Positions 1,646 through 55,046 of a stretch of 64,000 bases of DNA are shown here, one piece after another. Position 1 is the stretch's first letter, and the number at the start of each line of letters is the position of its first letter. A program made the translations under genes and the position numbers. Origin of the DNA: Escherichia phage vB_EcoM_ASO2A. The notes beneath the pieces are model-generated. The model was given only the letters and a program-made list of their open reading frames with translations, did not search any database and was not told the DNA's origin. The stretch is taken from sequence record MZ726793.1; one strand, 5' to 3'.

Positions 1646-1756
1646 ATGAATCCGAAAGATATGCAAGCATGGAAAGGGTACGACGATCTAAGCGCCTTGC
1701 GCAATAAGTCAAGCCGTAACTTTAGACGGTTGGAAGCAAAGAAAAAGAAAAAATAG
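1646..1756 (+). CDS. hypothetical basic peptide (36 aa)
   Basis: taagggggataacATG; ends in KKKKK. Confidence 0.4.
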   Translation: MNPKDMQAWKGYDDLSALRNKSSRNFRRLEAKKKKK

Positions 1757-1757
1757 T

Positions 1758-1813
1758 TTGACAAGTCCGCGTAGTCTGGTAATATGTATCTTGTAGGGCG
1801 GCAATGGTGCCGC
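1758..1813 (+). promoter_or_regulatory. promoter + 5' hairpin cassette, copy 5
   Basis: -35 TTGACA 1758-1763, -10 TAATAT 1780-1785, cttgTAGGGCGGCAatggTGCCGC from 1794. Confidence 0.6.
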
Positions 1814-1834
1814 TCACAAGAAGAGAGAAAAATC

Positions 1835-2119
1835 ATGAAAATTACAAAAAGCCTAACTAATTATGCAGCACGTCGCGGATTATGCTTAACCGTTGAAAAC
1901 TTAGGGAAAGAAGACTTTTTGTGTTTTTGGGAGCTTGAGAATGATTGCGAGTGGATGTTTTCTTATTCTATCTGCGAAGATCAAAACGGTTGTTTGTTAA
2001 CCTGGCGCGGTAATATCTATTTACCGGAAGAAATTAAAGAAGAGTTACCAGGTACGATCATGACAGAGAGACAGCTTAAAGAAGTGATCAATTTTGTAGG
2101 GCAAAACATTAAAAAATAA
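1835..2119 (+). CDS. hypothetical protein (94 aa)
   Basis: leader agaagagagaaaaatcATG; track start 1784 overlaps promoter/hairpin. Confidence 0.6.
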   Translation: MKITKSLTNYAARRGLCLTVENLGKEDFLCFWELENDCEWMFSYSICEDQNGCLLTWRGNIYLPEEIKEELPGTIMTERQLKEVINFVGQNIKK

Positions 2120-2120
2120 T

Positions 2121-2183
2121 TTGACAGTAGGCAAACAACGTAGTAAAGTTTATTACATAGAGCGGCGGAATGGTCCACCGCTC
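2121..2183 (+). promoter_or_regulatory. promoter + 5' hairpin cassette, copy 6
   Basis: -35 TTGACA 2121-2126, -10 TAAAGT 2144-2149, tacaTAGAGCGGcGGAatggTCCaCCGCTC from 2158. Confidence 0.55.
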
Positions 2184-2204
2184 ACAACAGAAGAGAAACA
2201 AATC

Positions 2205-2375
2205 ATGATCCCGACTATGTTTTATGTATCGCGCAAAGGTCACAATATTTTTTGGTCTGAAGATTTAAATGAAGCTATGACGTTTGCCCATGATCGTGTT
2301 GCTATCGGTGGCGTTAACATCACTGTAACCGATGAAAACGGCATTGAATACTATAACGGCGACGATGAAGAATAA
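2205..2375 (+). CDS. hypothetical protein (56 aa)
   Basis: leader agaagagaaacaaatcATG. Confidence 0.5.
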   Translation: MIPTMFYVSRKGHNIFWSEDLNEAMTFAHDRVAIGGVNITVTDENGIEYYNGDDEE

Positions 2376-2382
2376 TTAATGA

Positions 2383-2405
2383 GGCGGGGGGAGTATTCCC
2401 CGCCG
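2383..2405 (+). promoter_or_regulatory. GC hairpin of the same type but without an upstream promoter
   Basis: GGCGGGGggagtattCCCCGCC, no U tract, followed by aaagaggtaaatcATG. Confidence 0.4.
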
Positions 2406-2423
2406 TCAATAAAGAGGTAAATC

Positions 2424-2693
2424 ATGAAAATATCATTAGACGTTGCAATCAAGGCCATCGAATCCGGTTACATCCTGGTAAAAGATGATAAGGCTAAAAC
2501 CGTGCACCACGTTAACAAGGAAACAGGCGAAAGCATGATCACATATAAAGCCGCCTACTTTCTCCAATCAGTAGCAGATCCGCGCGTACAACGCCAGGTT
2601 ACAGCGGCTATTGCTAAAAAATTATGTGCTTTACAGGGCACAAGTTTTAACGAGATCGCCCCGTGTTTTGACTGGTCGAGCTTGAAAAAATAA
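2424..2693 (+). CDS. hypothetical protein (89 aa)
   Basis: ATG ORF with purine-rich leader. Confidence 0.6.
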   Translation: MKISLDVAIKAIESGYILVKDDKAKTVHHVNKETGESMITYKAAYFLQSVADPRVQRQVTAAIAKKLCALQGTSFNEIAPCFDWSSLKK

Positions 2694-2694
2694 T

Positions 2695-2756
2695 TTGACA
2701 ACAATTATAAATCGGGTAGAATGTATTTCGTAGGGCGGGGCAATAAGGCAACGCCC
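2695..2756 (+). promoter_or_regulatory. promoter + 5' hairpin cassette, copy 7
   Basis: -35 TTGACA 2695-2700, -10 TAGAAT 2717-2722, ttcgTAGGGCGgggcaataaggcaaCGCCC from 2731. Confidence 0.55.
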
Positions 2757-2774
2757 ATTAATGAGGGTAGAATC

Positions 2775-2879
2775 ATGTTAGAGAAAATTTTCACGGTCGT
2801 AGTAGTGGGCCTGGCGTTATCGGTTGGAGTGGTTGCAACTATGGCTAACATGATCCTATCTTCCCACGGTATTGGATAA
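2775..2879 (+). CDS. 34-aa hydrophobic (transmembrane) peptide
   Basis: not in track; gagggtagaatcATG; MLEKIFTVVVVGLALSVGVVATMANMILSSHGIG. Confidence 0.4.
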   Translation: MLEKIFTVVVVGLALSVGVVATMANMILSSHGIG

Positions 2880-2889
2880 GGTGAATCAA

Positions 2890-3105
2890 ATGATCACGAA
2901 TAAGACAGGTAAAACAGAATTTTTACGCGCCTTGCAGATCGGCAAGCCTGAGATCTGGCATTGCACTAAATCCGCGCATAATGAAATGAAAGATTTTACC
3001 GCTACTTTACAACGTGTTAAAATATCTATCACACAGAAAAAAGCCTTGTTAGTAGTAGAAAACGAGATCCCGCAAACTATTATTATTGTCGAGCGTACAG
3101 CATGA
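2890..3105 (+). CDS. hypothetical protein (71 aa)
   Basis: aaggtgaatcaaATG; track start 2872 is TTG. Confidence 0.5.
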   Translation: MITNKTGKTEFLRALQIGKPEIWHCTKSAHNEMKDFTATLQRVKISITQKKALLVVENEIPQTIIIVERTA

Positions 3106-3488
3106 AAACAGAAATCATTATTGAAATCATCAACGGTTATAAAGAAGCCTTTATTTTTGCTGAATCAGCAAGGGATCATGAAGGTAATTTTATTGATAAC
3201 TTAGACGATTATGATTTTTCTCCTAGCGCGGACGAACGGATCGCCCAGGATGTAACAGCCTTTATTAATGCTAATCTTGCCGCTATCTCTGAGGCAATGA
3301 GCGACGGCGCAACAGCCAACCAGATCGGGAATGATTTACATTTTACCCGTAACGGTCACGGCGCAGGCTTTTGGGATCGCCCTGAAATATACACCACTAA
3401 CACGGCGAACCGCCTAACCAATGCAGCTAAGTTTATGCCGAACGTGTCGGCTTACATTGGTGAAGATAATTTGATTTATATTGAATAA
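3102..3488 (+). CDS. hypothetical protein (128 aa) with TRNGHGAGFWD motif
   Basis: ATGA overlap with upstream stop; I recognise the motif but no function. Confidence 0.6.
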   Translation: MKTEIIIEIINGYKEAFIFAESARDHEGNFIDNLDDYDFSPSADERIAQDVTAFINANLAAISEAMSDGATANQIGNDLHFTRNGHGAGFWDRPEIYTTNTANRLTNAAKFMPNVSAYIGEDNLIYIE

Positions 3489-3494
3489 AAAGTA

Positions 3495-3552
3495 TTGACA
3501 CCGATCCCCAATATGGTACTATTTACCACGTAGGCGGGAAATGGTTTCCCGC
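3495..3552 (+). promoter_or_regulatory. promoter + 5' hairpin cassette, copy 8
   Basis: -35 TTGACA 3495-3500, -10 TACTAT 3517-3522, cacgTAGGCGGGAAAtggTTTCCCGCC from 3531. Confidence 0.6.
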
Positions 3553-3576
3553 CAGGTAATCAAAAAGGTAAATACT

Positions 3577-3966
3577 ATGCGCAACCTGGTTTCTGTTTCT
3601 AACGTTGAAAAATTTCAATCTTTACAGGGTATCGTTAACAACGTAGCGCCTTTTTTAGTCAACGGCTTGATTGCAAAGATGAAAAATAAACATCATGCGG
3701 CATGGTCTGCTTACTGCTTTGATAATGATGAAAAAGCGGCTGAAATGATGCTAAATATGCTGTTAGACAGTGTAGAATCATCTTTACCGGAAAACATCGC
3801 AGAAGAGATCACCTATCGTTATAATATGGCGATCACTTACCAGGAGGTTGCGCAATTTAATATGATGGACGATGACGAACAACAGGATCAGGAAATGTTT
3901 TGGGAGTATGCTGATCGTCAATCGGCTTTTGATGAAAAATTAGCGATGTATTATAACGAATATTAA
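3577..3966 (+). CDS. hypothetical protein (129 aa)
   Basis: aaaaggtaaatactATG; track start 3541 lies inside the hairpin. Confidence 0.6.
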   Translation: MRNLVSVSNVEKFQSLQGIVNNVAPFLVNGLIAKMKNKHHAAWSAYCFDNDEKAAEMMLNMLLDSVESSLPENIAEEITYRYNMAITYQEVAQFNMMDDDEQQDQEMFWEYADRQSAFDEKLAMYYNEY

Positions 3967-3983
3967 TACACGGTAAAAGAAAG

Positions 3984-4006
3984 GGGCGCACTAAGCGCCC
4001 TTTTTT
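3984..4006 (+). terminator. Rho-independent terminator, conserved hairpin copy 2
   Basis: GGGCGCACTAAGCGCCC + tttttt. Confidence 0.75.
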
Positions 4007-4071
4007 GTATTCTTTTTTCACGATGGAAACAACACGTAAAGAATAGGCGTAAAGGTGGCGTAAAACCATCT

Positions 4072-4164
4072 AAAACCGACTGTAACCGCTTAAACAAGGT
4101 AGGAATGATTAATCACCTTACCAGGATGAAAAAGCCGTTATAAAGCTATCTAGAGCGTTTAAAG
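4072..4164 (+). repeat. post-terminator non-coding module, copy 1 (related to 5180-5296)
   Basis: shares aaaaccgac ... taccagg..gccgtta.a.agc.at.tagagcg.ttaaa with copy 2, roughly 60-70 percent identical by eye. Confidence 0.45.
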
Positions 4165-4351
4165 CACATAGGAAATAATTTGCTTTTTATCTTGCCTTTT
4201 ACCCTGCTTTTGATTATTATTATGGAACGGGCGGCACCTGGAAGCAGGGGAAGATAATCACCGGAAGACCCCGCTATATATTGATAGCTAACATCTATCA
4301 AACAACAAAACATCAAAGAGATAAACTATCAAATCTTTACAATCCTACCTA

Positions 4352-4410
4352 TTGACACCGGATCACGCTTACATTATCATTTATCACGTAGGGCGGGAAT
4401 GTTTCCCGCC
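4352..4410 (+). promoter_or_regulatory. promoter + 5' hairpin cassette, copy 9
   Basis: -35 TTGACA 4352-4357, -10 TATCAT 4375-4380, cacgTAGGGCGGGAAtgTTTCCCGCC from 4389. Confidence 0.6.
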
Positions 4411-4428
4411 TGATTTAGGAGTCATATC

Positions 4429-4662
4429 ATGATCGAACAAATTAAAAGCACTAAACCAAATGTTAACGGTAATGTTTCTCACTTTATCGGGGATAATGAA
4501 AGAGGTACACCGTACGCCGCCGTAACCGTTCAACCGAACGGGGATTATTGGTTTACCGTGTACGGATCTTACTCTTTTGGACGTTCGGCACATGATAAGA
4601 TCTTGCAAGTGGTTAAGCCTACTGGGAAGAATATCACAGCAGAAAAATTTTATAAAAAATAA
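4429..4662 (+). CDS. hypothetical protein (77 aa)
   Basis: ttaggagtcatatcATG. Confidence 0.6.
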   Translation: MIEQIKSTKPNVNGNVSHFIGDNERGTPYAAVTVQPNGDYWFTVYGSYSFGRSAHDKILQVVKPTGKNITAEKFYKK

Positions 4663-4663
4663 C

Positions 4664-4723
4664 TTGCTTTATAGCTCCTGTTAACTTATAGTTATTGCGT
4701 AGGGCGAGCAATACAGCAAGCCC
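4664..4723 (+). promoter_or_regulatory. promoter + 5' hairpin cassette, copy 10
   Basis: -35 TTGCTT 4664-4669, -10 TATAGT 4687-4692, tgcgTAGGGCgagcaatacagcaaGCCC from 4700. Confidence 0.5.
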
Positions 4724-4741
4724 ACAAAGAGGAAAATAAAA

Positions 4742-5110
4742 ATGAGCAAATCAGCAATTAAAGCACTTGAAAAAGCACAAGAAGTGATCGCAACGTCAAC
4801 CACTGGCGCAAAGGTTAATCTTGTTGGTTATCTGACAGATGAAACTATCCGTAAAAATTGGCGTAATGCTGATTTACTGGCTTGCTTATTGATTAATAGT
4901 GTCGCTAATGCTTTCCAGTGCGAAACAGCCGAGAGCCTGGAGGAAAACTTGTTTGATAATATGGATCAAGCCATTGAAACCTATATACAATCAAACATGG
5001 ATAGCTGGAACAGTAAAACATGGCCCGACAATTTACGCGATACAACTGATCAACTGATCCGCCTTGCCCTGATGGTTGAACGCGATAACGTTCACAACCG
5101 CACAAAGTAA
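4742..5110 (+). CDS. hypothetical protein (122 aa)
   Basis: aaagaggaaaataaaaATG. Confidence 0.6.
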   Translation: MSKSAIKALEKAQEVIATSTTGAKVNLVGYLTDETIRKNWRNADLLACLLINSVANAFQCETAESLEENLFDNMDQAIETYIQSNMDSWNSKTWPDNLRDTTDQLIRLALMVERDNVHNRTK

Positions 5111-5121
5111 GATTATACAAG

Positions 5122-5147
5122 GGGCGCACTAAGCGCCCTTTCTTTTT
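5122..5147 (+). terminator. Rho-independent terminator, conserved hairpin copy 3
   Basis: GGGCGCACTAAGCGCCC + tttcttttt. Confidence 0.75.
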
Positions 5148-6659
5148 GCCTAAATAATGTTGATAGATTCCGCCTATGGAAAACCGACACAGAACAAAAC
5201 TGAATAAATAGCGGTATCGAGCTAATCAACCATTAAACGAATAACCATACCTCCCAGGGTAACAGGCTGTTAGAGAGCCATTTAGAGCGGTTAAAATCGA
5301 TCAACAACCAACAACAAACCATCAAAAACACCCTTTTACCTCCTTTCTAGTGCAATGATAACCATTATCATCTATCCATGTTTATCTATGCAATATAAGT
5401 GCATAACTATAATGTTGATAATAGTTCGCAACAACTAACTAACCAACAACCTAAAACAATAAGCAAACTAATCATAATCAAAGGAATAATAGCAAGATGA
5501 TTGATAACGACAAACAATCAAACTATGATGAATACTAAGCAAGATAACGATAATACGACAAAACAACCAACTAACGAACAATAACAAACGAAACCATTAA
5601 AATAATAACTATTAGCAAAATAGTGCCTGAATGAAATCATTACAAAACGAATCATTCACAGGATCATCATTAGCACGCTATGCCGGACACATAGCGAGCT
5701 AATAATAAGCCAACTACACCCCAACAATCATAACCATCGGTGATGGTTATTTCTTGTTACTGCGTAGCTTGCAATAATTGCAAGCGTAATACGCTTACAC
5801 TTATTGCGCTGGCTTATTATTAGCATTATATGTAATTACCAAGATCATAACATTAGCGCAATAACAATAATCATTGTGGTAATTACAAGATGAAATCATT
5901 AGCAAGATGAATAATTGCACGTAGCAACATGAGCGAATAGCGACAGGTTGCATAGTGTGCACATAGATGTACACGCAGTGTATAAACATACAAGAAAATA
6001 AAGGCTAATCTTTCGGGGGCGAATACTATCGCGTAGCGATATGTTGAGCATCTTCTCTTAAACGTAAATAAAATCAGAAAATTCTTGATTTATTTTAGTT
6101 TTTATGTTAATAAACGTTTAAATAATAATCATTCTCATATAAATAATAGTCTGCTTGTCATGAGCGGGATCAGTTGACAATGTTCCGTCATATGATGAAG
6201 TTGCCAAACCATTGATAAATAAGTGTTTGTGTGATTTATAATCAAGTGGCCCACCTTGTCGCTATGTTGGCATGAGCCTTGCATAAGTCCTTGAATACGA
6301 ATGATAATTATTCTCATTCTCATGATATTTGGGAATTGTCGCTGCGTGGACCTGACGGCCCGAAAATTCGCGTTAAGCACTTCTTACGTATGCGCCATGA
6401 TTTTTGCCATATGATATTGATTCTATTAGATATTCTTGCCATGATTGCCATGAAACAGGGTGTCCCGAAATAATCTCTCCCCGTAGATATTTTGGGTTAC
6501 TTTTTATACAAGAGTGGGGTGTCAAAAATAATCGGTATATATGGGATAATTGATAGGAATCCCCTATGATAATTCGATTGTAATTCCCTGAGATTGATCG
6601 TATGATGTTGGTGATTGATGATTGCCATGAAAGATGGCTAACGATGAGAGGAGATTATC
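5148..6659. other. 1.5 kb gene-free, repeat- and palindrome-rich region
   Basis: no credible ORF. Plus strand is A+C rich and G poor over about 5280-5720. AGCAAGAT(G/A)A occurs at 5491, 5538, 5901. ATCATTAGCA occurs at 5666, 5895. Palindromes at 5730-5750, 5767-5785, 5782-5796. GATTGCCATGAAA occurs at 6443 and 6620. Confidence 0.6.
5180..5296 (+). repeat. post-terminator non-coding module, copy 2
   Basis: see 4072-4164. Confidence 0.45.
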
Positions 6660-21409: not shown

Positions 21410-21573
21410 TGCAAGTAGGTGATGTGGTTTGTCTTAAAGGTGCAAACAAACAAATGACAGTAATAGAAAGTTATGGTGAATCTTGTAAAGTAACTTGGTT
21501 TGATGAAAACGGGGATTTGCAACACGCTATATTCGATCAAAAAGCTTTGAGGAAGGTTGAAGAAAAAGAATGA
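21406..21573 (+). CDS. small protein resembling the YodC/DUF2158 pattern (55 aa)
   Basis: not in track; MMQVGDVVCLKGANKQMTVIE...CKVTWFDENG. Confidence 0.45.
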   Translation: MMQVGDVVCLKGANKQMTVIESYGESCKVTWFDENGDLQHAIFDQKALRKVEEKE

Positions 21574-21833
21574 GCCATCCGTCAATATTTTTCTGTTTTG
21601 TAGATCTTGAAAACGAGTCTTTAATCGTTGATAGTGAGGGTTACTTCACTTATTGGGAATCCGAGCACGAAACTATAAGTGTAGTGAAAGAAATTATGCA
21701 AACCAATCCAAACCTACCAGCGCATAAGTACGGTATTGCAAAAGTGTTTGTTACTAAAACAGAGTACACAAAAGAGCGAAGCACTTTGTACCATAATATT
21801 GAAGTGATTCACTATTTCAAAGATGTTATTTAG
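21570..21833 (+). CDS. hypothetical protein (87 aa)
   Basis: ATGA overlap. Confidence 0.55.
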   Translation: MSHPSIFFCFVDLENESLIVDSEGYFTYWESEHETISVVKEIMQTNPNLPAHKYGIAKVFVTKTEYTKERSTLYHNIEVIHYFKDVI

Positions 21834-21841
21834 GAGGTTAT

Positions 21842-22450
21842 ATGGAAGAGAAGATTTGGGATGGTAAAGATCCTTTAGAAGTTGGACACGTAGCACGTGT
21901 CAAAAAATCTACTACAGGTCCTGGTTTTTCTGGTTTGTATCATATACCAGAAGAAGGTCAGCACGTTACAATTTTGGCTCGTGACAAACAAAACGGAGCA
22001 ACGCCTGTGTGGATTGTTCGTTGGTATGACAAAGATCTTAACATTTGCTTGTCACCTATTATGGCTCATTTGCTGGAAGCCCCTTGCTCTGAAGAAGCTC
22101 TAATTTTTGTTTCGGCTTTTCAGAAAGCCACAGGTTTAACATTAGATGCAAAAGATGTGCAAAAAGCATTTGACATTATTCAGGAAGACAACGATACTAC
22201 ATCTAACGACGAACTGGTTGAAGTTACAATCTTATCTTCAGCAGATATCCGAGAGATTGATAATTGTGATTTTCCAATCACATTTAAAATGTCGCAGAAA
22301 GACATGCAGTCATCTGGAAGTTGTTTTGGTATACCTCGTTGGTTTTTTGATTCTATCAAAAATTCTACTACAGAGGGATCAGACTATGATCAAGATGACA
22401 TGCTTTGGTTCTTAAAAAACCGAGAGATTGTTCTCTCACCACTTAAATAA
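21842..22450 (+). CDS. hypothetical protein (202 aa)
   Basis: SD taggagg. Confidence 0.65.
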   Translation: MEEKIWDGKDPLEVGHVARVKKSTTGPGFSGLYHIPEEGQHVTILARDKQNGATPVWIVRWYDKDLNICLSPIMAHLLEAPCSEEALIFVSAFQKATGLTLDAKDVQKAFDIIQEDNDTTSNDELVEVTILSSADIREIDNCDFPITFKMSQKDMQSSGSCFGIPRWFFDSIKNSTTEGSDYDQDDMLWFLKNREIVLSPLK

Positions 22451-33789: not shown

Positions 33790-33815
33790 TATTAATCTCC
33801 TATGTTTAAGAAATG

Positions 33816-33833
33816 CCCCCGAAGGGGCAGTTT
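33816..33833 (-). terminator. hairpin terminator
   Basis: minus strand TGCCCCttcgGGGGCA + tttctt. Confidence 0.55.
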
Positions 33834-33834
33834 G

Positions 33835-34527
33835 TTAAATAGCGGTTCCTTCGAAATCCGCCACATTTACGAGATTAATATTTTCAGATTTAGAAGTCAA
33901 GTTGTTTTCTGCAACAGATTTTTCTTCAGTATCCGCCTCGTTACCTGCCACGTTACGAGGTTCTTCTTCACCGTAGGGATTACCGAATTTCAAAAGATTG
34001 ATCAATTCTTCTTTGGAGAAGTTTTCTAAATCATCGTCTGTTAATTCAATAATCTCGTCTTGTTCTTCAATAAATGTTTCACCACCAGAAAAAGCATCTC
34101 GCTTTTTAGCTACTTCCATAGCTTGTTCTGGTGTTGCCCCTGCGTCAAGAGCAGCTAAAGCAAAGTCTGACCCACTTCCTACTGCATAATATTCTTCATC
34201 AATCGGATATGCACGTGTTGGGTTGTTACCTTCGTGCAAGAAAATACGTCCGTCTGGATGAACAACAAGTGCAATAAACTCTTCATCTTCTTTATCTGGA
34301 TCAGAGTGAATCATCAAACCAGGGACAGCATCACGTGCTGCTTCGCACTGTAGATTTTGTTCAAACCATTGAAAGAAAGAAAGCACGGAGGTCAGACGAC
34401 CAGCACCACCTACAAGGTAATCTCCAATTTTTCGGACCTTTTTGAAATTAATAGAATCTACACGTCCACCAAAAGTTACCTTACCGTCACTCAAAATCTT
34501 ATTTTTGGTTGCAATAATTGTCGTCAC
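33835..34527 (-). CDS. HslV-like / proteasome beta-type Ntn-hydrolase peptidase with acidic C-terminal extension (230 aa)
   Basis: N-terminus M-TTIIATKN (Thr nucleophile after Met removal, cf. HslV MTTIVSV), KVRKIGDYLVGGAG, YAVGSGSDFALAALDAG; SD gaggagg then GTG. Confidence 0.65.
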   Translation of the reverse strand: MTTIIATKNKILSDGKVTFGGRVDSINFKKVRKIGDYLVGGAGRLTSVLSFFQWFEQNLQCEAARDAVPGLMIHSDPDKEDEEFIALVVHPDGRIFLHEGNNPTRAYPIDEEYYAVGSGSDFALAALDAGATPEQAMEVAKKRDAFSGGETFIEEQDEIIELTDDDLENFSKEELINLLKFGNPYGEEEPRNVAGNEADTEEKSVAENNLTSKSENINLVNVADFEGTAI

Positions 34528-35027
34528 TATTCTTCCTCCTCTGTTAATGTTTTAAGAACCGCTTTCCCGCCATTCACATATTTGCAGATGTATTCTATCG
34601 CACGTAGTGTCTCTTTGTCAACAAAAATTTGATCAGACGTTGCGAGCGGGTTATTAAGAAGATCACTGCAATCACGAACAAGCAGTGCTTTCTTATTAAA
34701 CAAATTACTTAAGAACAGTAACTTCGCCTCTTCTTCTGTTATGTGCAGAAGGCTAGGATCGGAGCCAGCTATTCCTATTATACAATCAAACAAGCTTTCT
34801 TTACTATCAGAAAGTTCTTGAAAATGGTTTAAAAGCCAATCTTCTCCTAGACACCAACATTTAAACATTTCCAGTTTATCTCGGAGGGTCATATTCTCTA
34901 AAGTAAGAGCAATCTCTTTTTCAATATGGTTTACACAAATTTGACGAAATTCGTTAGGTTTTACGAGTCCCGTTTGATAGCACTCATCTATACCGCTTCT
35001 TCCGATAGCTATTGTTGCTACACCCAT
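34527..35027 (-). CDS. hypothetical protein (166 aa)
   Basis: SD aaggagg. Confidence 0.6.
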   Translation of the reverse strand: MGVATIAIGRSGIDECYQTGLVKPNEFRQICVNHIEKEIALTLENMTLRDKLEMFKCWCLGEDWLLNHFQELSDSKESLFDCIIGIAGSDPSLLHITEEEAKLLFLSNLFNKKALLVRDCSDLLNNPLATSDQIFVDKETLRAIEYICKYVNGGKAVLKTLTEEEE

Positions 35028-35062
35028 CAATCCTCCTTATAAATGGCTTCCCTGCCATGTCA

Positions 35063-35821
35063 TTAAATAAACACTTCAGTAATCAGTTTAGACAAACGTC
35101 CACGTTTATTATCGTCCGTTGTCAGTTCAACGTATCCAATAAAATCTACAATTGGCTCACGAACACCTTCTTCATTTTCTGGATATAAAAGTTCCAAAAT
35201 TTGATGCAGACCATTGCTACGTTTTTTAATTGCATATGTCTGGCGAACATCGCCTAATACAATAACATGCGTATTAATACCTGCACGTTCAATAAGAAGT
35301 TTAAGTGTTTCTGTTGACATAAGTTGTGCTTCGTCAATAATGACGATTGTATTATCCAGGGTGGCCCCCAACAAATAGTTAGGAATATTCAATTCGATCT
35401 TACCTGATCCAATATCGTTTTCCAATTTGTTGGCTGTCATGAATTGCTGGAAAATACGTTTTGTAGATTCATAGTGTGCTGCTAGTTTATCTGTTTTATC
35501 TCCAGACAAGAAACCAATCTGGTCATCTCCGACTTCAGTAGGGTTCTTGATAAAAAGTAGTTTACGGAAGTCTCCTGAACGAAGCATCTGCAAAGCTTTC
35601 CATAAAGCAACAGAGGTTTTACCAGTCCCTGCCGGAGCATTTACAACAGTCAGATCATTCCAAATCATGCTTTGAACAATCTTATTTTGGTCCCCTTCAG
35701 GCATAAATTCATCTAAACGGTAATCGTCATTACCTACCGCTTTTGCTGCATAACGGCTTTCAATCTTTGCTGAATTAGCCAGTTTCTGCCGTTGTGTTTT
35801 AGCTGCGGTTTTATTTCCCAT
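35063..35821 (-). CDS. phoH: PhoH-like ATPase
   Basis: SD aaggag then ATG 35821. NAPAGTGKTSVAL (Walker A), VIIDEAQ (Walker B). The track start 35872 would run through a hairpin. Confidence 0.9.
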   Translation of the reverse strand: MGNKTAAKTQRQKLANSAKIESRYAAKAVGNDDYRLDEFMPEGDQNKIVQSMIWNDLTVVNAPAGTGKTSVALWKALQMLRSGDFRKLLFIKNPTEVGDDQIGFLSGDKTDKLAAHYESTKRIFQQFMTANKLENDIGSGKIELNIPNYLLGATLDNTIVIIDEAQLMSTETLKLLIERAGINTHVIVLGDVRQTYAIKKRSNGLHQILELLYPENEEGVREPIVDFIGYVELTTDDNKRGRLSKLITEVFI

Positions 35822-35858
35822 AGTAGCACTCCTTTTAGAAGGGGCCGAAGCCCCTTTA

Positions 35859-36359
35859 TTAGTTGTAAGCATCTAAAGTTCCAGAAGTCAGAACTTTAAT
35901 TACTCGTTCAGCACGGTTTGGCGTCTGGCTATACCATCGGCTTTTACGCATGTTTTTACCTGCTTGAGTATAATATGCATTGCTGATTAAAGTCAAGCTA
36001 TTTTGAAACCCTTCAGCACCTTTTAACCCCAACTGGAAAACCATGTTGATTATTCCCAATTTACGAGTATCACTAACCTTATCATAGATTGGTGATAAGA
36101 TAGCACTGTTTTTTATGTCTCTCTTCACTTTTGCAACATCGTCAGCAAAGATTTGACGGGCTTCTTTTTCTGTGATAACTCCATTAGTCTTACGACCAAG
36201 AAGATTATCTAAGATTTGAATAGCCTTTGCTTTATCTTTTATTTTAGTCAGAAGGTGTCCTATGCCGACTGTCCAATAACCAAGATGGTCTTGATAAACA
36301 GTAAGCTTCAGTCCTTCATCGACTCGTAGCATATCAAACTCATCTACTACTTTAGCCAT
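35859..36359 (-). CDS. T4-type lysozyme (GH24 endolysin)
   Basis: FDMLRVDEGLKLTVYQDHLGYWTVGIGHLLTK ... SRWYSQTPNRAERV aligns by eye with T4 gp e. Confidence 0.95.
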   Translation of the reverse strand: MAKVVDEFDMLRVDEGLKLTVYQDHLGYWTVGIGHLLTKIKDKAKAIQILDNLLGRKTNGVITEKEARQIFADDVAKVKRDIKNSAILSPIYDKVSDTRKLGIINMVFQLGLKGAEGFQNSLTLISNAYYTQAGKNMRKSRWYSQTPNRAERVIKVLTSGTLDAYN

Positions 36360-36366
36360 TTACTTC

Positions 36367-36516
36367 CTATTCGTCGTCTCCTACTCCGTGATCCAACTCG
36401 TTAAACAACAGATGTTCTGGAGAAGTTTCACGTTTTGGTTTCGTTTTCTTTATGTTGGACTTCAGCTCATTTGCCAAAGCACGAGAAAAGATCTTACGTT
36501 TCTGTTTACTTTTCAT
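36367..36516 (-). CDS. 49-aa basic peptide
   Basis: not in track; SD ggag 8 nt upstream; MKSKQKRKIFSRALANELKSNIKKTKPKRE... Confidence 0.4.
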   Translation of the reverse strand: MKSKQKRKIFSRALANELKSNIKKTKPKRETSPEHLLFNELDHGVGDDE

Positions 36517-36521
36517 AATTG

Positions 36522-36782
36522 TTACTCCGCAATTTGAGCCATGAGATCACGCAGTTCGGTAAAACCGCCTACGTATGTTACCTCCCCGTTCACTTCGGAC
36601 AGAATTTGTGGAAATGTGCGTGGAGGAACTCCGGTAAGATCAACAACTGTTTTAGTCATTGATTCTAAATCATAGTCTTGATCAAGACTTAAATATTCAA
36701 ACTGTTTATTGCGCATGGTTAATAGTTGTTTTGACATTTCACAAAATTGACAGTTAGGTTTACCAAAAATTACAAATTCCAT
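36522..36782 (-). CDS. glutaredoxin / NrdC-like thiol-disulfide oxidoreductase (86 aa)
   Basis: FGKPNCQFCEMSKQLL (CxxC), ..TFPQI..., GGF..L; TAATG coupling to rmlD. Confidence 0.8.
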   Translation of the reverse strand: MEFVIFGKPNCQFCEMSKQLLTMRNKQFEYLSLDQDYDLESMTKTVVDLTGVPPRTFPQILSEVNGEVTYVGGFTELRDLMAQIAE

Positions 36783-37624
36783 TACCTCTCCTTATTAAGT
36801 AATACTGCTAAAGACTGTTCAATACCTTTATTTAAATCTGATTTTGTAAGATAGTGACTGGTTACTAGTTGTGACTTCACCGGACGTGCTGCTGGAGCAT
36901 TATAGGTTGAAGCTGATACCGCCGATATCTTAACAGGTTCTGGCATCTGTGTCAAGATCTTTTCCGCAAACTCCGCCCAAGAAATAAGATGGCTTCCTGC
37001 AAAATGGTAAGTCTTAACAGACCTTGACCAACCTGTTTTTAATACTTCAAAAATAGCTTCTGCTAAATCTGGAGCATATGTTGGACAAGAGAACTGATCA
37101 GCAACAATAATAAAATCACGTTGTCCATCATTATAGCGAGACAACATGGTTTTTAGAAAGTTATTTCCAAATTCGCTATATACCGAGGCTGTTCGAATAA
37201 TATATGCATTTGGGTTAACTCCTCGCACCATTTTTTCACCAAGTTCTTTCGTATACCCATAATTGTTTATTGGGTTAGGTGTAGTATCTTCAAAAATAGG
37301 ATGAGAATAATTAAAAATATAGTCTGTAGAAATATGCACAAAATCAATTTTAAGTTTGCTGCACACTGCCGCAATATTTGCAGGTCCATACGCATTAACA
37401 GCCAAAGCAGTAGCAAAATCATGTTCTGCTTTATCTACAGCCGTATAAGCGGCGCAATTAATAACACCATCTACATAATCTTCAATAATAGCGTTTCGCA
37501 CAGCTTCAAAATTTGTAATATCTACACGTTCTTTAGGATAAATTAAAGATACATTTGAAGGAGCCACTTTACGTAAAGCTTGTCCCAGTTGTCCATTACC
37601 GCCCAATACCAGATATGTTAGCAT
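36782..37624 (-). CDS. rmlD: dTDP-4-dehydrorhamnose reductase
   Basis: LVLGGNGQLGQAL Rossmann N-terminus, 280 aa, position after rmlC, overlapping start. Confidence 0.9.
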   Translation of the reverse strand: MLTYLVLGGNGQLGQALRKVAPSNVSLIYPKERVDITNFEAVRNAIIEDYVDGVINCAAYTAVDKAEHDFATALAVNAYGPANIAAVCSKLKIDFVHISTDYIFNYSHPIFEDTTPNPINNYGYTKELGEKMVRGVNPNAYIIRTASVYSEFGNNFLKTMLSRYNDGQRDFIIVADQFSCPTYAPDLAEAIFEVLKTGWSRSVKTYHFAGSHLISWAEFAEKILTQMPEPVKISAVSASTYNAPAARPVKSQLVTSHYLTKSDLNKGIEQSLAVLLNKER

Positions 37625-38184
37625 ACACCCTCGCTACGTAACTGTTGAAAAGATTTAGCCATTGCATCTTTTGTTGATAGAATAGGTTTAAAACCTTCGT
37701 CAAAAATCATATCGAAGCCCCAATCGATCCCTATATCAGGATCATCCCAACGTAAACTTTGTTCACTAGAAGGGTCGTATGGAGTTGTGCATTTGTATTC
37801 AAAGATAGCATCCATACTCAAAACTATAAAACCATGAGCCAAACCAGGCGGAAGCCAAAACTGCGTATGGTGTCGTGCACGAAGAACAACACCGTCCCAA
37901 GCACCGTAAGTTGGACTATCTTTACGTAAATCTACAGCGAAATCCAATACTTCCCCACTTACACAACGAACTAGCTTACCTTGCGGGTTATTTGTTTGAA
38001 AGTGCATTCCTCGCAAAACACCGAAGTTTGATTTAGACATGTTATCTTGAACGAAAGTTTGTCTACCAATAATATCTTCGTATTTTTGTTCATTATATGT
38101 TTCTAGAAAGAAACCACGATCATCTTTATAAACGTCTGGTTTGATAATTACCGCACCTTCAATTTTTGTTTTTTCTACTTTCAT
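37618..38184 (-). CDS. rmlC: dTDP-4-dehydrorhamnose 3,5-epimerase
   Basis: start ATG 38184 (ATGA overlap with the rmlA stop); [50 protein letters not shown]. Confidence 0.9.
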
Positions 38185-39059
38185 TTTCTCTCCGCTAATT
38201 TGAGTAGGTATTGCCCGTACTCTGTTTTCTTCAGTGAGTTTCCATGATACACCAAAGTCTCTAAAGAAATCCACCCTTTTTTGAAAGCAATTTCTTCCAG
38301 GCACGCAATCTTCAATCCTTGACAGTTCTCAATAGTCTGCACGAATTGACCAGCTTCCATCAGACTGGCGTGTGTTCCTGTGTCAAGCCAAGTAAATCCT
38401 CGTCCGAGAACTTCCACTTGTAACTTCCTGTCTTCTAGGTAGCTGCGATTGATATCAGTGATCTCCAGTTCTCCACGCGCGGAAGGGGTTACTTCTAATG
38501 CACGTTGAATAACAGAGTTATCATAGAAATACAAACCTGTGACAGCATAATCTGATTTAGGATTTTCAGGTTTCTCTTCAATAGAAATAGCTTGACGATT
38601 ACTCCCAAATTCAACCACACCGAATCGTTCAGGATCTTTCACCAAATACCCGAAAATACAAGCTCCGCCCCAAACATCTACCATCTCACTGGCGTTAATC
38701 AGTAGTTTACCAAAGCTTTGTCCGAAGAATAGGTTGTCACCTAAAATAAGAGCAACAGAGTCTTCTCCGATAAAATCTTTACCTATGATGAAAGCTTCCG
38801 CAAGACCTCGTGGCTCGGATTGGATTGCGTAAGTGAGTTTTATCCCAAACATAGACCCATCTCCGAGAAGATACTCAAAGTCTTCCTGATCACCTGGTGT
38901 GGTGATGATTAAAATATCCTTAATGTCAGCCAACATCAATACCGATAAAGGGTAGTAGATCATGGGTTTGTCATACACAGGGAGCAATTGCTTGCTCACA
39001 CTGCGTGTTACCGGATGAAGGCGGGTTCCGCTTCCTCCCGCCAAAATAATACCTTTCAT
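38181..39059 (-). CDS. rmlA: glucose-1-phosphate thymidylyltransferase
   Basis: [37 protein letters not shown]. Confidence 0.95.
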
Positions 39060-39067
39060 AACCCTCC

Positions 39068-40060
39068 TTAAATTTTCTCACTCCACCATTGAGGGTTGTT
39101 TAAGTACCATTCAATCGTTGAGTAGAGATCTTGTTCAAATGTAGAGTTTGCACTCCAGCCCAGTTCAGACTCTATCTTAGAAGGATTGATTTCATAACGC
39201 AAGTCATGTCCTTTACGATCTTCAACAAAAGTTATCAAGTTGGAAGAAGGGTAGGTTACTGCTTCTGGATGTACAGTATCCATATAGTCACAAACCATAT
39301 AGATGATCTCCATATTGGTTTTGGGATTACGTGTTCCAACATTATACGTTTGACCTGGTTCTCCACCTGTTGCCACTTGAAGAATAGCTCGCGCATGATC
39401 CTCAACAAAAAGCCAGTCTCGCACCTGGTCGCCTTTACCATACACCGGAATCTCTTTATTCGTCAAGATACTTGTGATGATTTTTGGGATCAGCTTTTCT
39501 GGATGTTGATAAGGCCCAAAGTTATTGGAGCAGTTGGTTATCACAACAGGCAAATCGTAGGTGCGGTGCCAAGCTTTCACAAGATGGTCAGATGCCGCCT
39601 TAGACGCACTGTATGGGCTTGAAGGGGCATAAGCTGTCTCTTCGGTAAAAGGAACGCCAGAGTCTGCCATATCGCCGTACACTTCGTCTGTGGAGACGTG
39701 TACGAACATCTTCAGTTTATTTTTTGGGAGGAGCCTTGCAGCTTCCAATAAATTGTATGTACCAATAATATTGGAGTCAATGAAAACTCGTGGATTCTTG
39801 ATAGAATTATCCACATGACTCTCTGCCGCTAAGTGAATGATGAAATCGGGATTGCACTCTACTACTAAACTTTTGACCTGGGTTTCGTTTGCCAAATCTG
39901 TCATGCTTAGTTTAATGTGAGTGATATCGCCTACATTCTCAATATCTGCTGCATAGCCCATCTTATCAACGACAAAAACTTCGTTATTAGGATCTTGACA
40001 AAGAGAGCGCACCACGGCACTCCCAATAAAACCAAGACCACCTGTTACCAGATAGCGCAT
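39068..40060 (-). CDS. rmlB: dTDP-glucose 4,6-dehydratase
   Basis: [30 protein letters not shown]. Confidence 0.95.
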
Positions 40061-40069
40061 CAGTTCTCC

Positions 40070-40396
40070 TTACCAGACATGTTGAGAAATAATAGTTTCC
40101 GTTTTAATGTTATATTTTTCAAGTAGTTTTGCATAGGCTTCTTTTGCATTCTCATTCAATTGCTCAAGATCTACAGCTATGCTTCCCTCTCCGCCTTCTA
40201 AATCAAGGCCATATATGCAATAAGACTCATCCGCATCGTAGAAAGGAGAGATGCGGCTTAAGTCCAGACCTTCTTGTAAGAACCAGTTAAAATCTCCATC
40301 AAATTCTTCTTCAATTCTAGGATCTTCTCCTACAGCCTCTTCCCATTTATTAAAAGGTGCACCCTGTAACATACGCCATGCAATATCAACTCCCAC
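40070..40396 (-). CDS. hypothetical acidic protein (108 aa)
   Basis: GTG start; overlaps the end of the upstream mini-ORF. Confidence 0.5.
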   Translation of the reverse strand: MGVDIAWRMLQGAPFNKWEEAVGEDPRIEEEFDGDFNWFLQEGLDLSRISPFYDADESYCIYGLDLEGGEGSIAVDLEQLNENAKEAYAKLLEKYNIKTETIISQHVW

Positions 40397-54641: not shown

Positions 54642-55046
54642 TTATTGAAGTTTAAGTGAACCACGAAGACGTTTCTCTTGCTGATCACGAATATATTGTG
54701 GAACCTCGTGAATTGAATCATTACCGTGCCTATTTTCAACAACTAAAGAGATAACTTGATAACCAAACTCTTCAGCAAGAGTTAGATAAGGTTTAAGTTC
54801 TTTCTCTGTGGTTGAAGTGTTAGAAACAATAATCTTGTTAAGATTAGATGCCATAGCATCACGAACAATACTCTGACACCATGCGTGTGCTTTACCTACG
54901 TTTTCTGGCTTCCAATCGTAAACACCACTTTCTGTGTAATGATATTGATCTGCCTCACAGATAGGCCAATAACCTTCAGAAATAATTTCTGCTACTGTAG
55001 ATTTACCAGCACCTGAAACGCCACGTAAAATGATAAGTTGTTTCAT
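54642..55046 (-). CDS. P-loop polynucleotide 5'-kinase-like protein (T4 Pnk kinase-domain-like, 134 aa)
   Basis: LILRGVSGAGKST, EADQYH, IIVSNTSTTEKELKPYLTLAEEFGYQV parallels T4 Pnk [45 protein letters not shown]. Confidence 0.6.
   Translation of the reverse strand: MKQLIILRGVSGAGKSTVAEIISEGYWPICEADQYHYTESGVYDWKPENVGKAHAWCQSIVRDAMASNLNKIIVSNTSTTEKELKPYLTLAEEFGYQVISLVVENRHGNDSIHEVPQYIRDQQEKRLRGSLKLQ

Follow-up and report, generated by a model that had tools for sequence, protein, structure and literature searches.

We analyzed a 64,000-nucleotide stretch of the Escherichia phage vB_EcoM_ASO2A genome (MZ726793.1; the whole stretch is referred to here as the window) and focused on a minus-strand open reading frame (ORF) of 230 amino acids that encodes a proteasome-like peptidase. 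The ORF begins with a GTG codon that overlaps the TAG stop of the preceding ORF by a single base (TAGTG), and a Shine-Dalgarno sequence, GAGGAGG, is located 7 nt upstream of the GTG. The local gene order is lysozyme, PhoH, a gene that we refer to as X (gp174 of phage phAPEC8) and the peptidase, the stop of X overlapping the start of the peptidase gene. These genes are part of a minus-strand block that also includes ribonucleotide reductase, glutaredoxin and dTDP-sugar genes. The peptidase gene is an accessory gene of this nucleotide-metabolism and replication block.

The peptidase region is 100% identical to that of Escherichia phage PNJ1809-36 and 99.6% identical to that of phAPEC8 (Phapecoctavirus, Stephanstirmvirinae), where the same gene is gp175 and has identical boundaries in RefSeq. 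In the phAPEC8 group the RefSeq name is “peptidase HslV family,” and other depositors have used “ATP-dependent protease subunit” and “putative proteasome component.” Because these records already name the gene in this way, its identification is not new; the family also has its own PHROG (1040), and the PPH and RPC classes, treated below, were defined in 2021. We found homologues in 233 phage records and in at least 332 IMG/VR stretches. The hosts of the phages that carry them include Escherichia, Klebsiella, Vibrio, Aeromonas and Caulobacter, and Rhizobium phages are also among the carriers. In BFVD, 46 viral cluster representatives have the same fold.

Active site, fold and class of the peptidase

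The protein starts with MTTIIATKN. Since methionine aminopeptidase prefers a small residue at P1′, the initiator methionine is expected to be removed. The HslV of E. coli begins with MTTIVSV, similar to the MTTI found here. The active-site residues are T2 (Thr1 after Met removal), D14, K30 and G43, of which Asp14 and Lys30 correspond to Asp17 and Lys33 of HslV. The oxyanion glycine is within a GGAG segment (residues 40–43), and a GSG (117–119) occurs in the segment AVGSGSDFALAAL (residues 115–127). At the level of sequence, the threonine, Asp14, Lys30, the glycine of GGAG and the serine of GSG jointly reproduce the active site of the proteasome and HslV. In an alignment of 41 sequences, M1, T2, T3, I4, D14, K30, G117, S118 and G119 are invariant. 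Conservation was also counted in 150 representatives from an exhaustive phmmer search of 1.84 billion proteins. The nucleophile is Thr in 139 and Ser in two, and the other nine have alignment gaps and are probably truncated or mis-started sequences. The Asp is present in 144 of the representatives, the Lys in 143 and the equivalent of Gly47 in 149.

The peptidase passes the Pfam Proteasome model PF00227 (25.6 bits; gathering cut-off 22.4) and matches PHROG 1040, “peptidase HslV family,” from end to end (E = 1.6e-63). The best PDB relative found by phmmer with the single sequence is Thermotoga maritima HslV (E = 4.9e-9), and a family profile improves this to 4e-16. An AlphaFold2 (AF2) model of the monomer, built on 41 homologues, has a predicted local distance difference test score (pLDDT) of 84 overall and above 90 in the core. 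Foldseek places the model closest, within the PDB, to HslV, the Betaproteobacterial proteasome homologue (BPH) and 20S beta subunits, with E-values around 1e-10 and a probability of 1.00, and the predicted core has the alpha-beta-beta-alpha N-terminal nucleophile (Ntn) fold of a proteasome beta subunit. A preliminary description of this DNA had proposed such a fold from the MTTIIATKN start, the GGAG and the AVGSGSDFALAAL segment, with a Thr nucleophile exposed after Met removal. The segments are present as described, the profile and structure comparisons support the fold, and the threonine is conserved in homologues.

The AF2 model departs from HslV in one respect that affects its classification. 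DSSP assigns a single helix to residues 45–67, coil to 68–83 and a strand to 84–89, so that helix H2 is absent and an acidic loop (68–83) takes its place. Helices H1, H3 (120–128) and H4 (133–143) are kept. Loss of H2 is the hallmark of two groups described by Fuchs, Alva and Lupas (2021; PMC8665760): PPH (“Proteasome homologue of Phages and their Hosts”), with about 140 residues and WP_042125023.1 as its representative, and RPC, represented by WP_140207863, which has a C-terminal extension. In the same work, helices H1–H4 make the inter-subunit contacts, and Table 1 gives RPC for Proteobacteria only, with phages not among them.

The exhaustive phmmer search returned 2334 representatives at E < 1e-3. 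The top ~60 have 180–350 amino acids and carry a C-terminal extension, and the next ~90 have 130–160 amino acids and score 57–75 bits (E = 1e-10 to 1e-14). HslVs score well below the latter, at 26–39 bits. By these scores, the closest relatives that lack an extension are the proteins of 130–160 amino acids, not HslVs. The peptidase also fails the HslV equivalog models PRK05456 (32.2 vs. 137 bits) and TIGR03692 of NCBIfam (31.4 vs. 157.75 bits). Because its scores are so far under the equivalog cut-offs, it is not, on this measure, an HslV orthologue. We therefore describe it as a compact, H2-less peptidase of PPH/RPC type, an assignment made by features and not by direct clustering with published representatives.

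With PPH the peptidase shares an occurrence in tailed phages of Proteobacteria, the compact HslV/BPH-like beta fold, the Thr1/Asp17/Lys33/Gly47 site, the lack of a propeptide and the lack of H2. It differs in that PPH has about 140 residues, whereas the protein described here has a core of 156 residues and an extension of 74 with a helical motif. It resembles RPC in combining an H2-less, PPH-like core with an added C-terminal part that has no known structure and, in Pfam, no match; however, RPC has been reported from Proteobacteria only and its C-terminal part is called a domain, so that the likeness is one of features. HslV provides the best-matching solved structures and shares the MTTI start without a propeptide, the catalytic residues and H1, H3 and H4, but the phage protein lacks H2, has a first hairpin four residues shorter, has no hslU neighbour and has a C-terminal extension added. 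BPH (PDB 5OVS), a group I proteasome-like protein, is among the top Foldseek matches, but it keeps H2, has about 200 amino acids, is chromosomal and heptameric, and has only marginal phmmer similarity to the peptidase (E ~ 1). BPH has been described as a double-ring peptidase without a known unfoldase (Fuchs et al., 2021; PMC8665760).

The C-terminal extension and its linkage to phoH

Residues 157–230 form an extension of 74 amino acids, 20 of which are Asp or Glu (net charge −15). The preliminary description took it for about 60 extra acidic residues. Its acidity is evident, but it is not a plain tail: AF2 predicts helices at 164–169 and 172–181 with a pLDDT of ~90, and pLDDT falls below 50, indicating predicted disorder, only at residues 190–214. 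The segment IELTDDDLENFSKEELINLLKFG is kept in homologues down to ~30% core identity. The motif consists of an acidic run, LTxExLxxMSKEELLxLLFG and a second acidic run. A hidden Markov model (HMM) of the motif matches 41 of 73 long representatives, whereas all 77 short ones are negative, and further long representatives have a motif recognizable by eye. Among the 13,125 ORFs of the fetched loci it matches no ORF other than those of the PPH type. Beyond the motif the tail varies in sequence and keeps its charge, with 69 of 80 tails net negative (median −12). Pfam recognizes nothing in eight tails at E-values up to 10.

This acidic region thus holds a conserved and specific helical motif, and the motif is strictly linked to phoH over several gene orders. 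The linkage is a new observation and the one new lead from this analysis. We scored the motif and flanking phoH genes in 128 non-identical loci (denoted by L numbers), obtained from 160 IMG/VR loci and phage records. A phoH gene is present within 3.4 kb (median ~0.5 kb) in 26/26 motif-bearing loci and in 7/102 others. When only loci flanked on each side by 4 kb or more are considered, the counts are 20/20 and 2/53 (Fisher p = 5e-16), and by clusters at 50% identity they are 5/5 and 4/33 (p = 2.5e-4). The order PhoH-X-peptidase is also present in metagenomic phages with peptidases of only 42–50% identity. The linkage is kept over at least five arrangements of the genes, in differing genomic backgrounds, an argument that it is more than frozen synteny.

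Seven phoH-linked loci were negative with the motif HMM. Two of them (L029 and L099) have a divergent motif by eye; phoH lies downstream of the peptidase there, separated from it by one or two small ORFs for membrane proteins. In L026 the sequence is cut by the contig end. In L129–L131 the stop of phoH and the start of the peptidase gene overlap, and the peptidase has 157–160 amino acids and a short acidic end. The last, L048, is a T7-like contig. Homologues in Caulobacter phages have no adjacent phoH. In the literature searched we found no work that connects PhoH with a phage peptidase.

In one relative this region is disrupted. Escherichia phage VEcB (NC_052663.1, a phi92-like Justusliebigvirus) encodes at 21498–22298 a protein, P0066, in which residues 1–113 of PhoH are fused in frame to residues 63–217 of the peptidase. 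Lost in the deletion are the second, C-terminal half of PhoH, the whole of X and the part of the peptidase with Thr1, Asp and Lys, and the RefSeq label of the fusion is still “peptidase HslV family.” If the record reflects a real phage and not an assembly error, this suggests that the peptidase gene is dispensable, and the lack of an intact module in VEcB would fit an accessory, condition-dependent role.

Several further observations concern the motif and the proteins linked to it. Aeromonas phage 4L372D (L007; 4432–4983 and 5001–5885) and locus L020 (9432–9989 and 10001–10873) each encode two adjacent PHROG 1040 paralogues. One paralogue of each pair has 183–185 amino acids, starts with M/L-TCIIA and has no extension, and the other has 290–294 amino acids and carries the motif. 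These pairs hint at hetero-oligomeric rings. The C-termini of peptidase-linked PhoH proteins (L010, L013–L016, L093, L097, L113 and the PhoH of the window) read ITE[VIL][YF](x), with an aromatic residue last or next to last. The likeness to HbYX, the tail motif of proteasome activators, is loose, and these endings are probably just the end of a common PhoH C-terminal helix. We rejected a reading as nucleic-acid-binding HeH/SAP/Rho_N motifs of the C-terminal motif and of a second motif (LGVKYAHNIGxEKL) in longer homologues, as it was made by eye only and Pfam was blank. A possible S-D/K-E-E-L motif in small ORFs between phoH and the peptidase of Vibrio phages was also discarded, as the motif HMM gave no significant match.

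Possible modes of action

The locus raises the question of what a virus gains from its own threonine peptidase. We identified no AAA+ unfoldase gene in the 64-kb window, because among ORFs of at least 100 amino acids only two have a Walker A motif, PhoH and a 134-amino-acid AAA_33 ORF; no hslU adjoins the peptidase. The preliminary description had likewise reported no HslU partner. It had overlooked the RefSeq annotation of the gene, as well as the P-loop ATPase PhoH, two genes upstream and in conserved linkage. In phAPEC8, gp014 (record 139005–140144; L003 41006–42145) encodes a weak classic-clade AAA ATPase of 379 amino acids, with Walker A GTKGSGKT, adjoining an endonuclease (PF00004, 8.7e-7; Rix7/Cdc48, ~5e-4). 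It maps outside the phAPEC8 stretch that matches the window, ~43 kb from the peptidase across the ends of the linear record. Homologues of gp014 are found chiefly in Herelleviridae-type phages of Gram-positive bacteria (Enterococcus, Bacillus, Staphylococcus, Lactobacillus and Lactococcus), which are absent from the list of peptidase matches, and are rare or absent in the peptidase-bearing Vibrio, Caulobacter and Rhizobium phages. Because gp014 and the peptidase are carried by largely different phage groups they are no dedicated pair, and we rejected gp014 as the missing unfoldase.

We consider it most probable, at roughly 0.55, that this accessory gene encodes an active threonine peptidase of the H2-less type found in phages, whose C-terminal motif and acidic tail serve in partner docking or gating. 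Removal of Met would expose Thr1 as the nucleophile. Because H1, H3 and H4 are kept, the protein may assemble into stacked rings like those of HslV and BPH. It would act on peptides or on unfolded or disordered proteins without a dedicated HslU-type unfoldase, and the acidic loop would replace a helix on the surface where H2 was lost. The C-terminal helical hairpin and the acidic disordered tail would most likely provide docking or gating for a partner; the best candidates for this partner are X and PhoH, the neighbours inherited together with the peptidase, or else some host factor.

Several points weigh against this interpretation. The linkage test loses power at 40% identity, where clusters merge, and because of this merging shared ancestry may account for the linkage; the genes may stay together by inherited synteny, with no functional tie between them. 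Rings and the placement of the C-terminal hairpin are predictions from a monomer model, and loss of H2 could prevent rings from forming, beyond changing the activator face. The literature searched holds no biochemical data on any PPH-type protein and assigns no phage proteasome homologue a function by experiment. All known hosts of the peptidase-bearing phages have HslUV, so the phage protein could use host HslU.

The last point leads to the proposal, close to that of the preliminary description, that the phage supplies a peptidase working in place of host HslV or alongside it, with host HslU (or ClpX) as its motor, for the degradation of host proteins or of proteins of anti-phage defence. By structure and by sequence the nearest solved relatives are HslVs, the MTTI start is as in E. 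coli HslV, and there is no phage unfoldase gene nearby, all of which favor it along with the presence of HslUV in the hosts. However, the scores far under the HslV equivalog cut-offs and the loss of H2 in the model somewhat weaken the idea of host HslU hijack, and we consider it fairly unlikely. HslV is a dodecamer made up of two hexameric rings, which the C-terminal tails of HslU activate, and H1 and H2 form the surface that faces the activator or the alpha ring. ClpX docks via its IGF loops on ClpP, which has a different fold, and this counts against the use of ClpX. In HslV, the groove that takes up the C-terminus of HslU is made by a beta-hairpin and the body of the neighbouring subunit (PMC7468587). 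This description of the groove was all that the literature searched offered, with no residue-level source for the contacts between HslV and the HslU tail. The corresponding hairpin is diverged in the phage peptidase. The residue aligned with Lys28 of E. coli HslV, which we take to have a role here, is Ser. BPH also sets a precedent for a ring protease that has no known unfoldase. That the phage enzyme degrades host or defence proteins is pure conjecture. In a variant in which catalysis is irrelevant, the peptidase would be a decoy: it would sequester host HslU by binding it, or assemble together with host HslV, and so shield phage proteins from HslUV. Phages do inhibit host proteases, as T4 PinA does Lon, and the tail is acidic, but the HslU-facing features are not conserved and the catalytic residues are near-invariant in very divergent homologues. 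The latter argues for selection on catalysis, and we give the decoy only a slight chance.

Alternatively, the C-terminal motif may dock the peptidase to the phage PhoH, possibly via X, in a phage-specific machine for nucleotide-dependent degradation or RNA/protein processing that is unrelated to HslUV. In support, all motif-bearing loci are linked to phoH, the linkage holds over the various gene orders, including those with phoH downstream (L029, L099) or with its stop overlapping the peptidase (L129–L131), and the VEcB deletion covers exactly phoH, X and the peptidase gene. A functional link of this kind would provide a testable function for phage PhoH, a widespread marker gene whose role has been a puzzle, and would bear on two old questions of phage genomics, PhoH itself and the proteasome homologues of phages. 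Nevertheless, we regard it as unlikely in this specific form, given that PhoH is common in phages without such a peptidase, that PhoH-family proteins are tied to RNA metabolism and not to protein unfolding, that the Caulobacter phage homologues lack the neighbour, and that the linkage is known from genomes alone and is open to the explanation by ancestry given above. The enzyme could also be active without being a bulk protease, as a specific processing enzyme, a ligase or transpeptidase like connectase, or a monomeric amidohydrolase with a single phage or host target. The family does include the non-protease connectase and split-ring or monomeric forms (PMC8665760), H2 loss may block closed rings, and the C-terminal hairpin could be a lid for substrate recognition. 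Connectase, however, lacks both H1 and H2 and has an insertion between S3 and S4, whereas the model of the phage protein retains H1, H3 and H4 and shows no such insertion, which makes this option decidedly unlikely.

A role as head-maturation (prohead) protease would find a parallel in the T7-like contig L048 (IMGVR_UViG_3300024484_000153, 1688–5888), in which a PPH of 139 amino acids is encoded between a T7-type capsid assembly (scaffold) gene and a Gp10A-like major capsid gene, downstream of the portal. To our knowledge, T7-like phages normally lack a prohead protease. The gene studied here, however, is on the opposite strand ~30 kb from the head genes, and VEcB lacks the catalytic N-terminus. 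Moreover, phAPEC8 gp117 (record 66487–66966; L002 17688–18167; outside the window) matches Peptidase_S78_2 (XkdF) at 1.4e-11 and adjoins the portal gene. Because of this S78 homologue beside the portal and the location of the peptidase in the nucleotide-metabolism block, a capsid-maturation role is very unlikely and has next to no chance in our assessment. The PHROG matches of gp117 include head maturation protease, and the strongest is a family labelled DNA methyltransferase; its RefSeq label “DNA methyltransferase” may be wrong, as gp117 looks like a prohead protease.

The preferred interpretation, an accessory H2-less threonine peptidase with a docking or gating element, draws on the conserved active site, the motif with its phoH linkage and the one sequenced phage in which the catalytic N-terminus is deleted.

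Neighbouring genes and other features of the window

The features described here are listed in Table 1. The AF2 model of protein X has a pLDDT of 92, and its best Foldseek match in the PDB reaches an E-value of only 0.33, so that X may have a predicted new fold or may simply be a helical bundle without relatives. Beyond its clade X is not detectably conserved; VnaP_090 gave only E = 0.004 in a search of 10 sequences. PADLOC returned no defence-system match for the peptidase or for either neighbour.

Table 1. Features at the peptidase locus and P-loop ORFs of the window (positions in the 64,000-nucleotide stretch).
Feature	Position	Strand	Evidence or remark
Whole peptidase gene (PPH/HslV-like, 230 amino acids, = phAPEC8 gp175)	33835..34527	minus	ORF, PF00227, PHROG 1040, RefSeq name
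Predicted catalytic Ntn core, residues 1–156	34060..34527	minus	Invariant alignment columns, AF2, Foldseek
Thr1 codon	34522–34524	minus	Within catalytic core
Acidic loop, residues 68–83 (contains VPGLMIHSDPDKEDEE), at the place of H2	34279..34326	minus	DSSP of AF2 model
Conserved C-terminal motif, residues 160–184 (IELTDDDLENFSKEELINLLKFGNP), two-helix hairpin between acidic residues	33976..34050	minus	AF2 helices, motif HMM
Variable net-acidic tail, residues 185–230, largely disordered by prediction	33838..33975	minus	pLDDT, charge counts
Terminator-like GC-rich hairpin, UUCG tetraloop, then TTTCTT; 5 nt past peptidase stop	33814..33829	minus	Consensus scan only
Sigma70-like promoter match TTGACA-18-TAGAAT (11/12) inside gene X, ~65 nt 5′ of GTG	34592..34621	minus	Consensus scan only
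Gene X (phAPEC8 gp174, ~166 amino acids, all-alpha, PHROG 14834, function unknown)	34527..35030	minus	Always between phoH and peptidase in clade
PhoH-like P-loop ATPase, two genes upstream of peptidase	35063..35872	minus	Pfam PhoH 1.2e-36
134-amino-acid AAA_33 small nucleotide/polynucleotide-kinase-like P-loop ORF	54642..55046	minus	Walker A

We rejected the idea that the peptidase gene is an autonomous “moron” transcription unit, as its promoter-like and terminator-like sites come from consensus scans only and are not conserved in a phi92-like relative. The hairpin 3′ of the peptidase is not at the same place in that relative, and the phAPEC8 record carries no terminator annotation for it. 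Sigma70-like sites are no commoner in the region than in shuffled sequence, and the match inside gene X is not conserved in L013.

Five records of “Campylobacter” phages (host Campylobacter jejuni) were among the megablast matches to the coliphage region, which could be due to mislabelling or contamination. Further along the minus strand, at ~36500–40100 of the window, are the counterparts of phAPEC8 gp166–gp170, comprising glutaredoxin and a dTDP-sugar set: glucose-1-phosphate thymidylyltransferase, dTDP-4-dehydrorhamnose 3,5-epimerase and two nucleotide-sugar epimerases. Four glycosyltransferase genes occur elsewhere in the phage genome, and the dTDP-sugar genes may serve DNA modification or the modification of surface glycans.

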